The position numbers and the translations under genes are program-made. From Bdellovibrio sp. (GTDB lineage: Bacteria; Bdellovibrionota; Bdellovibrionia; Bdellovibrionales; Bdellovibrionaceae), in contig JAKFCY010000002.1 in assembly GCA_036676395.1 (NCBI GenBank), forward strand, positions 1,504,001 to 1,568,000: DNA of 64,000 nucleotides. The letters are read 5' to 3'. Each line of letters starts with the position of its first letter. The stretch's first letter is position 1. Below the pieces are notes generated by a model. The model saw nothing but the letters and a program-made list of their open reading frames with translations. It searched no databases and was not told where the DNA came from. Positions 5,056 to 8,988 of the stretch are shown piece after piece.

Positions 5056-6210
5056 ATGCTTAAGCGTATCACAATGAGACAATGCCTTTTAATTTTAGTG
5101 ATCTTTCTAACTGCTGGCTTAAATGCGTTTGCGGGCGACTCTGAAGTGCAAATTTCTGAGCAACTTGATATTAATCCAAACGACTATGTTGTCGAAAGCC
5201 CGGCTGAAGTTAATTCTAAAATTAAAGCCACTGCGCACAAGGATAAAAATAACTATTCTGTAAAAGTTGATTTACCAAATTCATCATTTGTTATCGCGCA
5301 CCCAACTGCAGAACAAATGGAATTTTATCGCGATTTATCTGACGCCGATAAAGTTAAATTTCACGAAAAAAGAATGATCGGATTAAATACTTTAGCCAAA
5401 GCACTTACATCGATCAAAAAAGGTTTAGGTATTGGTTCATACGTTAAAGACAAAGTGATGTTCTGGAAACACAAGCAAGGCCAAGTCAGCATGACTGAAC
5501 GTGGTGACCATGTTGTTGAAGGCATTCTTCGTTCATTTGATGCTAAAGCTTGGGAATCAGCACCGATCTTTGCCGACTTAAAAGAAATTGGCTTTACCGG
5601 TACAGGTCAAATCGTAGCCGCTCTTGGAACTAACAAGCGTATTGATATTCACAAAGAAATCGCGCATAAAAAAATTGATGTTGTGGTTCCAGAAGTTAAA
5701 TCCGGTGGAGCTATCGGTATTGGATTTACGGTCGGGGTAAATTTCGAACAAAGATCAGTCGTATTTCAATTATTCAACGCCAACGAACAGCTTAAAGAAG
5801 TTTACTTGCCGTTATTTTATTTGGCCGGAAACGTAAAAGCCGGAATGTATCTTTCAAGCTCTACGCAAAAACTTTATAGCTCACAAAAAGGCGAGGGCTT
5901 CTACCCGTTTGCAGCCCCGGGGTATTCAGAATCTGCACCTGGCAAAAAATCATTTGGCGGAACAATGGCTTTTGGTATCCCGACTTCGCCGATCGACGCC
6001 GGTCTTACTTTTAAAACAAACATGCAAGAGCAAAGCTATTTAAAAATTCGTATCTCGCCATTTACTTGGAAGTTTATCGGAATAAGTGTAAAAAACCCGA
6101 TGGGAATTATTAAAATCGCGGTTAAAAATATACCAGCACTATTTCTTGAATTTAAAAAAATTTATCAACAGTTCTATTATGCAAGATCTTGTAAAGGTTT
6201 GTATATCTAG
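5056..6210 (+). CDS. Exported hypothetical protein
   Basis: 384-aa ORF with a signal peptide ending AFA and RBS AGAGG. Gly/aromatic-rich, beta-strand-like C-terminal half; ends ARSCKGLYI. Confidence 0.8.
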   Translation: MLKRITMRQCLLILVIFLTAGLNAFAGDSEVQISEQLDINPNDYVVESPAEVNSKIKATAHKDKNNYSVKVDLPNSSFVIAHPTAEQMEFYRDLSDADKVKFHEKRMIGLNTLAKALTSIKKGLGIGSYVKDKVMFWKHKQGQVSMTERGDHVVEGILRSFDAKAWESAPIFADLKEIGFTGTGQIVAALGTNKRIDIHKEIAHKKIDVVVPEVKSGGAIGIGFTVGVNFEQRSVVFQLFNANEQLKEVYLPLFYLAGNVKAGMYLSSSTQKLYSSQKGEGFYPFAAPGYSESAPGKKSFGGTMAFGIPTSPIDAGLTFKTNMQEQSYLKIRISPFTWKFIGISVKNPMGIIKIAVKNIPALFLEFKKIYQQFYYARSCKGLYI

Positions 6211-6986
6211 CCCTTAGTAAGCGGAAAAAACGAGACCATAAGTTCATACACATGGTCTTTGTTTTGGCTTTTCTTTTCTAACTCATCAGCGAGGGTGCGG
6301 GTAAACTGCGTGATTTTTTTCTTGGCCTCATCCACTAATGTAGAATCAATCGCTACGGTTAAGGTCATATTTGCTCTTTGTGAATTTGGAATATCATGCA
6401 TAGCCTGCATAGCTTTAGCACCAAACTGCGTAATCGATTGTCTTAAGGCCGTGATATAAGATGCATGATCATCTGAAACAATTCTTAATCCAGGTGTTCC
6501 ATTGCCAGATTTTACTAATTGACCACCTTCAGTTTTATTCAAAAAACCAAGAGTTATTAATCTTTCAACGGCTAATTTTGCTTCGTCGACACTGATTCCA
6601 AGTTTGGTGCTGATCCAAGCAGCCTCTGGCTGAAAATCCGCAAGCAAAGTTAATTCGACGATGGTGATATTGTACCAATTTTGAATTAATTTAAATTCTT
6701 CGTGATGAACTTTTACATCTTGCATGCTCTCAAAATGTTTTATGCCATCAGAGCTTTTTACATATTCGCGGTAAGAAATTAACTCAGGTTCGACAAGCCC
6801 CACAGAAGGCGCTAAGCGATCTAACATTTTTAAAGTGATCGGAACCTTTTTTCGAAGAATTTTAGATAATAGAGATGGTTCGATATTAAGATCACGGGCA
6901 AAAGCCCGTAAAGAGTAACTTGAATTTGTGGATTGTCGTCTTAATAACTCGCTATTCAGAAATGTCGAAAAATTAGCATCATGCAT
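6207..6986 (-). CDS. TIGR02147/DUF4423-family HTH protein
   Basis: N-terminal YSLRAFARDL HTH, WYxxxIxEL, WISxKLGIS, and C-terminal VYELxxSFFPLT typical of the family. Confidence 0.8.
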   Translation of the reverse strand: MHDANFSTFLNSELLRRQSTNSSYSLRAFARDLNIEPSLLSKILRKKVPITLKMLDRLAPSVGLVEPELISYREYVKSSDGIKHFESMQDVKVHHEEFKLIQNWYNITIVELTLLADFQPEAAWISTKLGISVDEAKLAVERLITLGFLNKTEGGQLVKSGNGTPGLRIVSDDHASYITALRQSITQFGAKAMQAMHDIPNSQRANMTLTVAIDSTLVDEAKKKITQFTRTLADELEKKSQNKDHVYELMVSFFPLTKG

Positions 6987-7152: not shown

Positions 7153-8088
7153 CTAAACCTTCTTCAAATAACTCGCATTACTTTTCACTGGTCGCGACTT
7201 TAAATACTGCCCCGTCGTCGCAAGCGACGCATGCCCAAGAGTAGTTTGCACGACATGAATATCAGCTCCGTTTTCCAAAGCATGAATCGCCGAAGTGTGC
7301 CTGAACCAATGGGGTGATGGGGTTTTTCCGCCCGGCACCTTAATGCCTCCGAGTAAAGTCGCTTTTTTCACGATCTTGAAGATCGTAATTCGCGAAAGCG
7401 GAGCCCCTTCATAATTAAAGATGTAAGCATTAGGTTCTAACTGCGTTTTTTTAATGTACTTTTTAATCTCTTTCCATAAATACGTGCCCGTTAAAACCGT
7501 ACGTATCTTACTCCCCTTGCCAATCACTGTTAGATAAGCGCCTTGAGTATTACGCTTTTGCGTTGAAACCGAAAAGTCTTTAACCTTTATAGTTGATAGT
7601 TCACTTACCCGCAGGCCGGTGAAATACAAAATCTGCAGAATCAAGCGGTCGCGAGGGCTTTGAACTTTCTGAGTCATACGCTTGATCTGTTCGATGGATA
7701 GAACTTTATAATGAAAACTTTCAGTGACTTTTTCTTGTCTGACGACCTTAACTGGACTGCGCGGAATGTAGCCGACGTTTTCTAGATACTGAAATAGCGA
7801 AGATAAACAATTACGATGTAAATTACGTGTTGAAGCAGAGACCTTATCTTTCTTGCGCAGATATAACGTCACCAAAGCCGGCGTGATCTGTTTTAATCCT
7901 AAATGCCAATTGAATGTTAAAAAGTCTCTAATAATGCGCACATAGGTCTTTTTCGTGCGTTCTGAGAAATGGCCTTGATTTAACCACGCCCAAATCTGAA
8001 TTGATTCTTCAGACTGCAAATAGGTCGATAACTGCGATTTATCCGAGAAAAAATTGTTATCATTTAAAACGACTAAGCCCTGCTTCAT
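7153..8088 (-). CDS. Tyrosine recombinase, XerC/XerD-like
   Basis: Complete catalytic set: TGLRVSEL (R), GKGSK (K), PHWFRH (HxxR), LGHAS (H), TGQY (Y); 311 aa with an N-terminal core-binding domain. Confidence 0.93.
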   Translation of the reverse strand: MKQGLVVLNDNNFFSDKSQLSTYLQSEESIQIWAWLNQGHFSERTKKTYVRIIRDFLTFNWHLGLKQITPALVTLYLRKKDKVSASTRNLHRNCLSSLFQYLENVGYIPRSPVKVVRQEKVTESFHYKVLSIEQIKRMTQKVQSPRDRLILQILYFTGLRVSELSTIKVKDFSVSTQKRNTQGAYLTVIGKGSKIRTVLTGTYLWKEIKKYIKKTQLEPNAYIFNYEGAPLSRITIFKIVKKATLLGGIKVPGGKTPSPHWFRHTSAIHALENGADIHVVQTTLGHASLATTGQYLKSRPVKSNASYLKKV

Positions 8089-8375
8089 TGAAAATCCATT
8101 TCTAATGATAAGATTTGGTAATTAACTTCGGGTTTAACGCGGTTACGCCCATCTGATTTGGTCTTTTTCAAACTCACCAACCCCTTTTGCGCCAGAAAAT
8201 TGACCTCTTTTTGAATGTAAGGCTGAGACTTTTGCAGCGTGTTTGCGAGCTCATAAACCGACTCTGGCTTTAAGCTTTTTATCTGCCAAAGCAGCTCTAG
8301 GCGCTGCTTTGAAAGCCCTGCGAATAAATCGATAAAATCCTGCATTTTCTTGACCTTAATCAACATTTTTTTCAT
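8085..8375 (-). CDS. Winged-helix DNA-binding protein (HVO_A0114/MarR-like)
   Basis: RLELL..IK..KPESVYELA..L pattern; ATGA overlap with the recombinase start. Confidence 0.75.
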   Translation of the reverse strand: MKKMLIKVKKMQDFIDLFAGLSKQRLELLWQIKSLKPESVYELANTLQKSQPYIQKEVNFLAQKGLVSLKKTKSDGRNRVKPEVNYQILSLEMDFQ

Positions 8376-8382
8376 ATACTTA

Positions 8383-8410
8383 ATTTTATCATATATTACT
8401 TAAAATGCAA
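8383..8410 (-). promoter_or_regulatory. Putative sigma70 promoter of the wHTH-recombinase operon
   Basis: TTGCAT-N16-TAAAAT with a TGn extended -10; the -10 box ends 7 nt before the ATG at 8375. Confidence 0.5.
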
Positions 8411-8412
8411 TA

Positions 8413-8440
8413 CGTTAACAAAACTAAACTTATGTTAACC
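8413..8440. other. dif-like tyrosine recombinase site (11-6-11)
   Basis: CGTTAACAAAA-CTAAAC-TTATGTTAACC. The arms are 9/11 inverted repeats. The right arm matches the E. coli XerD arm TTATGTTAAAT at 9/11. About 330 bp upstream of the recombinase start. Confidence 0.7.
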
Positions 8441-8505
8441 ATTGATTTTTTGAATTTGGATTTTAAGGCTTGATTTTAAAGTGGAAGTTTTGGAAGATTA
8501 GACCC

Positions 8506-8988
8506 ATGAGAAACAACATCACTGACTTTACTTATCCGATCATCTTCAAGCACATTCATGGTTTTTTAACGGTTTCGGTTCCAGACTTGGGAATTGACGC
8601 CAAGGTTGCTGTTCCGAACGATTTTTTTCAGACAAAAAAACTAGAGGAAAATAAAGAAATTATTTGGCAGATATTTTCACAAGTTATGAAAGACTCGGTG
8701 TCACATCTTGAAACTAAGAAATGGATACCTAACGCGTCGCAAATCAAAACTCAGCTCAAAACCGCAGAGAAAGACTATAGCCTTCCTGAATTTTGCCGGG
8801 CCGTTCAAAAACATATAACAGTCAGCGAAAACACTTTGCGCCGAGAGATCTCAAAAGGAAAGATTATTTGCTATACTACTGAAGGCGGACACAGACGAAT
8901 TCCAGAATCAGAACTGCAACGCTATATTAAAAGTTCTCTAAATAATACCGCGGGCTCAAATCCCCCGGAACAGGACGGTCACTTATGA
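8506..8988 (+). CDS. DNA-binding protein with a HicB-like N-terminal fold and a C-terminal excisionase/MerR-type (HTH_17/BldC-like) domain
   Basis: N-terminal YPIIF...LTVSVPDL; C-terminal VSENTLRR...GKI.CYTTEGGHRRIPESEL. ATG 8506 preferred over TTG 8470. Confidence 0.7.
   Translation: MRNNITDFTYPIIFKHIHGFLTVSVPDLGIDAKVAVPNDFFQTKKLEENKEIIWQIFSQVMKDSVSHLETKKWIPNASQIKTQLKTAEKDYSLPEFCRAVQKHITVSENTLRREISKGKIICYTTEGGHRRIPESELQRYIKSSLNNTAGSNPPEQDGHL

Follow-up and report, generated by a model that had tools for sequence, protein, structure and literature searches.

We found that a 64,000-nucleotide stretch of Bdellovibrio sp. DNA (the window; positions 1504001-1568000 of contig C2 in the genome under study, G000) carries a four-part cassette that consists of a gene for a Xer-like tyrosine recombinase (REC), a palindrome with a 6-bp spacer, a tandem hexamer repeat, and a gene for an HTH_17-type DNA-binding partner protein. 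On balance, we read this locus as a plasmid-type multimer-resolution cassette, specific to the Bdellovibrionota, that became fixed beside the chromosomal dif site and that would constitute an accessory third Xer-like system. An earlier sequence-only reading of this DNA had described a self-contained single-recombinase module with an 11-6-11 site and two dedicated DNA-binding partners, a description that our analysis supports. The four-part layout recurred in all 26 modules of our set, 21 of them chromosomal and 5 on contigs that are plasmids or plasmid-like. What we observed directly, in these sequences and in a comparison set of 52 genomes of the genus (31 of high quality), is how the cassette is built, how far it is conserved and distributed, and in which genomic contexts it lies. 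Below, coordinates are window positions unless C2 is stated, site A denotes dif, and site B denotes the 28-bp palindrome at 8413-8440.

The recombinase gene, the third Xer-like gene of G000, is intact (7153-8088, reverse strand) and encodes 311 residues with SAM-like N-terminal and Phage_integrase domains in Pfam. Both the Phage_integrase score (PF00589; 106.7 bits against a cut-off of 27.1) and the catalytic R, HxxR, H, and Y positions, which align with those of the XerD-like protein of G000 (GLRVSEL, HWFRH, LGHAS, and GQY; 30% identity between the two proteins), place REC in the tyrosine recombinase superfamily. Its placement within families rests on curated-family scores and on sequence matches in the PDB. 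Among named families, REC scored highest with archaeal XerA (NF040815, 162.8 bits), a single recombinase that acts on a near-palindromic site, and an XerA structure was also its closest match among solved proteins (4a8e, E = 2.3e-22, compared to E = 2.5e-15 for XerH 5jjv), yet REC stayed below the XerA cut-off of 220, as it did below every other NCBIfam Xer cut-off, with 54.8 against 267 for XerS (NF003462), 142.2 against 329.6 for XerD (TIGR02225), and 141.2 against 335.15 for XerC (TIGR02224). The integron integrase model (TIGR02249) gave 92.6 against a cut-off of 265, in a match that was broken into two stretches. While the hosts of XerA have no other chromosomal system, REC is bacterial, accessory, and plasmid-linked.

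In G000, REC follows a gene for a 96-residue winged helix-turn-helix (wHTH) protein (8085-8375, reverse strand), the first gene of the operon, which matched HVO_A0114 in Pfam with 46.4 bits (cut-off 27.6, E = 3.4e-12). The wHTH stop and the REC start overlap in the 4-nt ATGA, the translational coupling that had been noticed from the letters alone. Among the six members of the G000 clade that we examined, the wHTH-REC order was kept in all and the same overlap in three; wHTH was present in 6 of 6 mapped members of this clade and in 0 of the 15 other chromosomal modules, and BLASTP returned no similarity between wHTH and the 109-residue protein at the same position on plasmid pBdHAGR1. The protein would serve as an additional regulator specific to the clade of G000, and it cannot be required for the palindrome type found there (T1, see below), because plasmid pBdHAGR2 and the plasmid contig G007:C6 carry T1 palindromes without it. 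Judging by the ratio of nonsynonymous to synonymous substitution rates, all three genes are under strong purifying selection (0.02-0.03 for REC across three relatives, 0.06-0.08 for wHTH, and 0.08-0.10 for the partner), with similar values for the neighbouring msrA.

Between the divergent genes lies site B (8413-8440, no strand assigned), CGTTAACAAAA-CTAAAC-TTATGTTAACC, the near-symmetric 11-6-11 site of the earlier description, whose arms match at 9 of 11 positions as inverted repeats and which we regard as the candidate core site and operator of REC. No second copy was found in the 3.4-Mb G000 assembly, as the sequence-only reading had it for the window, and the site exceeds what chance would give: the arms occurred once, every other match having 3-4 mismatches, and the arm search gave 10 matches in total versus 6-8 in shuffles. 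Site B was present in 10 of the 52 genus genomes, and in an intergenic alignment from 10 genomes it formed the longest invariant block, the hexamer repeat forming the second longest. Five of its six spacer positions were invariant in the 10 aligned chromosomes, and the sixth varied in G007.

Across the module set, the 6-bp-spaced palindrome was always located between REC (or wHTH) and the partner gene, at 110-123 bp before a conserved YP codon of the partner in 24 of 26 modules, and it fell into two types, T1 (TTAASAWAA-N6-TTWWSTTAA, which includes site B) and T2 (GCANGAWTA-N6-TAWTNNTGC). One of the two patterns was found in 26 of 26 modules, a count that is descriptive because the patterns were derived from those same sequences, and in 0 of 200 random 420-bp windows of C2, which tells us that the patterns are specific and nothing more. 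A generic search for 9-6-9 inverted repeats was non-discriminating, with 51% of shuffles scoring, and only the position-specific T1 and T2 patterns were informative. The tandem hexamer, TGGAAG-TTT-TGGAAG in G000 (8482-8496, forward strand), is a candidate binding site of the HTH_17 partner; with TGGCAG, TGTCAG, TGATAG, and TGAGCG as variants in other modules, a hexamer repeated at a 9-bp period preceded the YP codon by 49-66 bp in 24 of 25 modules, compared to 17% of shuffles.

The manner in which proteins and sites vary together suggests that REC binds the palindrome and that the HTH_17 partner binds the tandem hexamer. The palindrome type tracked the REC clade, T1 RECs being ~40% identical to T2 RECs, and the T1 RECs formed one clade in the best tree (support 64.7). 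The HTH_17 domain was nearly identical in T1 and T2 modules and so was the TGKMAG repeat, and where the HTH_17 domain had diverged (on the pBdHAGR plasmids and G007:C6), the hexamer differed as well. The cassette as we define it has four parts, and the pairing of protein with site that we propose is clear and can be tested.

Two chromosomes carry insertions at the palindrome, which fits a recombination site without proving one. In G007, 2.2 kb with a 425-residue gene and a zinc-ribbon gene lie between a decayed palindrome copy on the wHTH side and an intact copy on the partner side, and the homology of G007 to G000 breaks inside the left arm of the palindrome. In G042, 730 bp with an open reading frame of 111 residues are inserted between REC and the partner gene (L064). 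G042 additionally has a second palindrome, TGCAGTTAATA...TATTAACTGCA, that abuts the REC start.

A palindrome in a divergent promoter region also has the look of a plain operator, and we considered that site B might be an operator only, bound by REC, wHTH, or the HTH_17 protein, with REC recombining elsewhere, for example at dif or at a site on an incoming plasmid. The position of the palindrome, which in T2 modules adjoins or overlaps the REC start, agrees with such a role, as does the invariance of the spacer, since crossover alone would not need such conservation; furthermore, the right arm of site B and the XerD arm of dif have TTATGTTA in common, which speaks for this reading too. Yet the 11-6-11 architecture with A/T-rich inner arms is the layout of a Xer core site, the T2 arms are unlike the dif arms, both insertions sit exactly at the palindrome, and the same palindrome occurs on G007:C6 in the absence of any REC or wHTH to regulate, though upstream of the HTH_17 gene of that plasmid. 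Hence, we hold an operator-only role to be quite improbable. A promoter scan gave 3 sites versus 5.7 expected, and we claim no promoter.

The partner protein (8506-8988, forward strand; most likely 160 residues from an ATG at 8506) was encoded next to REC, in the opposite direction, in 21 of 21 chromosomal modules. By Pfam, it has an HTH_17 C-terminal domain, MerR/Xis/BldC-like in the predicted structure, which also points to a HicB-like fold of the N-terminal domain; of the earlier description as HicB-like plus an excisionase/BldC-type HTH, the HTH stood by profile (as HTH_17), and the HicB likeness found support at the fold level only. HTH_17 (PF12728) scored 31.2 bits against a cut-off of 27 and matched 26 of 26 family members; the excisionase model TIGR01764 ('excise') came slightly below its cut-off (26.9 versus 28.8), and the BldC model NF033787 reached 17.8 versus 77. 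The HicB profile (PF15919) matched 0 of 26 family members at E<=1. In an AlphaFold model with a mean predicted local distance difference test (pLDDT) score of 79.7, the N-domain (residues 8-87) found HicB N-domains as its best structures (6g1c, Z 5.9, root-mean-square deviation (rmsd) 2.3 over 64 aligned residues; 5yrz, Z 5.1; 4p78, Z 4.8), while an Atlas lead for the HicB N-domain had a score of 0.80 only, and no HicA gene adjoins the partner gene. These Z values are middling, and any HicB likeness of the N-domain lies at the level of fold. The modelled C-domain (residues 88-151) resembled SoxR (Z 7.9), the Pukovnik Xis (Z 7.1), the GIsul2 excisionase (Z 6.7), and BldC (6ama, template-modelling (TM) score 0.74 on the target and rmsd 1.9; 6amk, Z 6.2), where Z values of 6-8 for MerR-type, Xis, and BldC domains are again middling. 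Streptomyces BldC, likewise MerR-like, binds direct repeats cooperatively as multimers according to a passage of PMC5859096, a binding mode that fits the tandem hexamers seen here. Unlike the HTH_17 partner, BldC is a developmental regulator of 68 residues without a HicB-fold N-domain or a recombinase partner.

The plasmid copies of the cassette point to a role in multimer resolution. The best three REC hits in PLSDB were pBdHAGR1, pBdHM1, and pBdHAGR2 (36-38% identity), complete plasmids of cultured Bdellovibrio strains, each with a divergent partner gene and a palindrome; a PLSDB search with the HTH_17 partner gave 1 record only. On pBdHAGR2, the cassette adjoins KfrA and two toxin-antitoxin pairs, with ParA ~8 kb off. 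On G020:C150, the order is relaxase, HipA, a REC paralogue, a T2 palindrome, the HTH_17 gene, ~1 kb of iterons, and ParA. The iteron region between partner gene and ParA (L076 9321-10354) holds at least 10 copies of a TTTAGGGYAATGA-like iteron and, in addition, a sequence identical to the XerD arm of dif. G007:C6 is a circular conjugative plasmid (25,125 bp, 109-bp terminal overlap, 34% GC) and encodes a TrwC relaxase, a coupling protein, parts of a type IV secretion system, ParA, a Rep_O-like protein, an IS91-family transposase, and the toxin-antitoxin pairs HEPN/MNT and Gp49/HI1420. In the replicons that were checked in full (the G000 assembly, pBdHAGR2, and G007:C6), the palindrome occurred once. 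The plasmid cassettes thus present the picture expected of multimer-resolution cassettes, namely one site per replicon, located beside the recombinase gene and in the maintenance region with ParA, KfrA, Rep, and toxin-antitoxin neighbours.

G007:C6 carries a T1 palindrome and the partner gene, and no Phage_integrase match was found anywhere on the contig. The arms of its palindrome are the same as those found next to REC on the chromosome of that assembly, whereas its spacer is GTAATC versus CTGAAC on the chromosome and its hexamer repeat is private to the plasmid. Matching arms, a private spacer and hexamer, and the lack of a recombinase gene of its own are what would be expected if this plasmid used the host REC in trans.

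In its layout, the cassette resembles Cre/loxP of P1, ResD/rfsF of F, and TnpI/IRS of Tn4430, in all of which a recombinase gene lies beside its own single palindromic site in a plasmid maintenance region; membership of these families at the sequence level is no part of the likeness. In the IRS of Tn4430, tandem direct repeats likewise flank an inverted-repeat core on one of its sides. Compared with it and with the plasmid systems, the tandem repeats of the cassette are unlike the core arms and seem to go with another protein, the HTH_17 partner. Unlike Cre/loxP, ResD/rfsF, and TnpI/IRS, moreover, the cassette has a vertically inherited chromosomal copy beside dif.

The dif site of the predator chromosome is site A (ACTTCTGATAAGTTATATTATGTTGCAT, C2:1500527-1500554, reverse strand), as cross-genome conservation and its location at the end of the skew plateau indicate, and the attractive interpretation of site B as dif is thereby corrected. 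Site A lies 3.5 kb ahead of the window start and 11.9 kb to the left of site B, with a Fic-domain gene and a porin gene as its two neighbours. It was present as a single copy with <=3 mismatches in 13 of the 52 genus genomes, and its 24-nt core was found in 43 of 52 and in 29 of the 31 high-quality genomes, versus 1 match for the reversed control. The dif prediction of Carnoy and Roten for Bdellovibrio bacteriovorus HD100, as given in a passage of PMC2731167, is identical to site A over 20 contiguous bases. A scan of the genome with E. coli and B. subtilis dif motifs yielded chance-level matches with 7-9 mismatches, one of which, at C2:1500527, proved to be the real dif on cross-genome comparison. 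Two copies each of the dif core were seen in G022 (C9, C100), G064 (C10, C8), G050, and G046, which may reflect the integration of elements at dif, mimicry of dif by plasmids, or mixed bins.

Cumulative GC skew on C2 reached its maximum at 1,474,000 with a plateau to 1,500,000, which puts site B (C2:1512413) near the terminus, the point of the skew check proposed with the sequence-only reading, at 12-38 kb from the switch. Skewed 8-mers resembling FtsK-orienting polar sequences (KOPS) showed weak skews only (<=72%), in an analysis that is partly circular as the terminus was set beforehand; the cumulative switch of the top five motifs was at 1,484,264. The same reading had proposed a distinct one-recombinase chromosome-resolution system. 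That the locus is the cell's own single-recombinase dimer-resolution system, with site B as dif, would accord with a unique site of dif-like layout this close to the skew switch and with the best score of REC being against the archaeal single-recombinase XerA. The distribution data already contradict it, and we consider it extremely unlikely: a far better dif is located 11.9 kb away and has its core in 43 of 52 genomes, compared to 10 of 52 for site B, and the canonical recombinase genes whose presence was to be checked were found elsewhere in G000, an XerD-like gene at C2:1273262-1274098 (285.6 bits on the XerD model) and an XerC-like gene at C2:2326764-2327648 (217.2 bits on the XerC model), the two scoring 217.2-236 and 199.8-285.6 on the XerC and XerD models. 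Such genes occur in essentially all good genomes, with XerD-model matches (E<=1e-40) in 50 of 52 genomes and 31 of 31 high-quality ones, at least two in all of the latter but G051, where there was only one. G003, a complete genome, lacks REC although dif and both Xer genes are present, its dif core being at 1,337,185 of 2,657,893 bases (50.3%). A review names xerC and xerD genes in Bdellovibrio bacteriovorus (PMC11318664). REC itself, called at E<=1e-30, was present in only 34 of 52 genomes and 23 of the 31 high-quality ones. The suggested link to predators that segregate many chromosomes from a filament is not needed. The type species of the genus divides by binary fission.

REC and the dif core shared a contig in 23 of the 34 REC-bearing genomes, and in all 23 they were 18 bp to 15.2 kb apart. 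Mapping 22 loci, we found a fixed backbone in two flanks, one made up of genes for an ELFV dehydrogenase, a TPR protein, BamB, and a small protein, and the other of genes for a 74-residue protein, a 230-residue protein, an M28 peptidase, and a tRNA methyltransferase; the variable zone that holds dif sits between these two flanks, with REC and the HTH_17 partner at the edge of the zone. In 15 genomes, the module was on the XerC-arm side with REC toward dif, and it was on the opposite side in the others (REC toward dif in 6, away in 2). The module can thus stand to the left or to the right of dif as a mirror image, whereas the orientation of dif relative to the backbone is constant, and a simple inversion cannot yield such mirror placement around a fixed dif. 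As for the synteny across the group that the sequence-only reading had asked about, the layout of REC, site, and HTH_17 partner was kept, but wHTH was confined to the G000 clade and site B itself to 10 of 52 genomes.

The clades of the REC tree equalled those of the adjoining BamB and of the unlinked XerD-like gene, pointing to vertical descent of the chromosomal REC with a few changes of side. The REC branch of the G000 clade was ~twenty times longer than in the XerD tree, coinciding with the gain of wHTH, new neighbours, and a changed palindrome type, for which the simplest reading would be a replacement of the module by a different, plasmid-borne version.

The sequence-only reading had offered a minimal element integrated at dif as its other option, and this came nearer the mark, as the module is always beside dif and has plasmid relatives, but neither a flanking second dif-like site nor a tree at odds with the unlinked marker was found. 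In its sharper form, the pair of genes would be a domesticated or decaying integrase and directionality factor left by an element, plasmid or conjugative, that once integrated at or next to dif, site B being an attP core remnant or an operator with no present role in resolution. The excisionase-like C-domain of the partner speaks for such an origin (Pukovnik Xis Z 7.1, GIsul2 excisionase Z 6.7, and TIGR01764 at 26.9 versus 28.8), and so do the placement of the module to the left or right of dif with variable genes separating the two, its relatives on conjugative plasmids, and the G020 plasmid REC, which nests within the chromosomal T2 clade; in addition, mobile-element genes flank about a quarter of predicted dif sites, as stated in a part of PMC2731167. 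Against it, no second dif-like site (<=10/28 mismatches) flanked the module in the eight loci scanned and no second site B was found, no conjugation or replication genes were left near any of the 21 chromosomal loci, the three genes are under strong purifying selection, and the REC clades match an unlinked marker genus-wide, unlike a decaying remnant. The absence of phage, conjugation, and transposase genes around the locus, claimed from the window, held over C2:1494001-1514000. We therefore regard an integrase remnant as unlikely, if still worth weighing. The same features distinguish the locus from known elements. Like lambda-type Int/Xis modules and dif-integrating elements (integrative mobile elements exploiting Xer (IMEX) and the gonococcal genetic island), the REC locus presents a recombinase with an Xis/MerR-fold binder, a location beside dif, and variable genes around it, but unlike Int/Xis modules and IMEX it has neither flanking direct repeats nor a second dif-like site, and its clades match those of the unlinked marker. 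IMEX elements rely on the XerCD proteins of the host, as they carry no recombinase gene.

If the locus is a plasmid-type resolution cassette, as we favour, its sequence suggests the following mode of action. REC dimers would bind both arms of the palindrome and swap strands across the 6-bp spacer, while the HTH_17 protein would bind the tandem hexamers head-to-tail, ~45 bp from the core site, where it would repress its own gene and shape the synapse as an accessory or directionality factor. On plasmids, the expected job of such a cassette is multimer resolution, amid the genes for partition, replication, and toxin-antitoxin systems. The chromosomal copy of Pseudobdellovibrio, inherited vertically within ~15 kb of an XerCD-type dif, could act as a back-up in resolving or unlinking sister chromosomes, and its REC could act in trans for plasmids that have the site and lack the recombinase. 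According to a part of PMC2680272, Cre-loxP can take the place of XerCD-dif in E. coli when positioned within ter, and because a heterologous recombinase/site pair works within ter, a chromosomal cassette near dif could plausibly, by analogy, help to unlink sisters. A fuller version, in which Pseudobdellovibrio keeps a plasmid-origin recombinase/site pair in the dif activity zone as an independent back-up and shares it in trans with conjugative plasmids that carry only a matching site, with a spacer of their own, and at times dock at site B, is a speculative proposal that we think is probably not correct in full. Should the chromosomal copy act in dimer resolution, the laboratory replacement of XerCD-dif by Cre-loxP within ter would have its counterpart in nature, and the copy would also exemplify a recombinase that a host encodes and shares with plasmids lacking one; should it have no such role, the locus would be an ordinary, if well-kept, plasmid-type resolution or integration module.

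Several observations weigh against the resolution-cassette reading. No recombination event was observed, and contigs from 4 DNA runs across dif to site B contained no alternative joints, although contigs cannot reveal rare recombinants. The binding assignments are inferences drawn from co-variation between related sequences, the support of 64.7 for a single T1 REC clade is weak, the T1/T2 count is descriptive, and the operator-like setting of the palindrome noted above counts here as well. As 8 of the 31 high-quality genomes do without it, REC is dispensable. Of the REC-bearing genomes in which no distance to dif could be obtained, 8 had the two on separate contigs in fragmented assemblies and 3 had no dif core found; the flanking backbone genes are also always near dif, and the closeness of REC to dif may be mere conserved synteny. 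Finally, G007 is a binned assembly, 82% complete, such that the host assignment of G007:C6, with its GC content of 34%, is not certain.

Single-recombinase systems of bacteria offer the closest chromosomal comparison. XerS/difSL of streptococci and XerH/difH of Campylobacterota share with REC the use of one recombinase, an 11-6-11-type site directly upstream, and a location in the terminus region, but they replace XerCD as the sole system of their hosts, whereas REC coexists with XerC-like and XerD-like proteins and a canonical dif. We know of no HTH_17 partner or tandem repeats, both features of the REC locus, in XerS/difSL or XerH/difH. The four-part cassette did not turn up in the literature searched, where no search was aimed at such a cassette.

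Two further genes adjoin REC in G000, a gene of the DUF4423/TIGR02147 family (6207-6986, reverse strand) and a gene for 384 residues without a Pfam match (5056-6210, forward strand). Apart from the other mapped loci, which have neither, both are kept in G052, and G062 has kept the DUF4423 gene alone.

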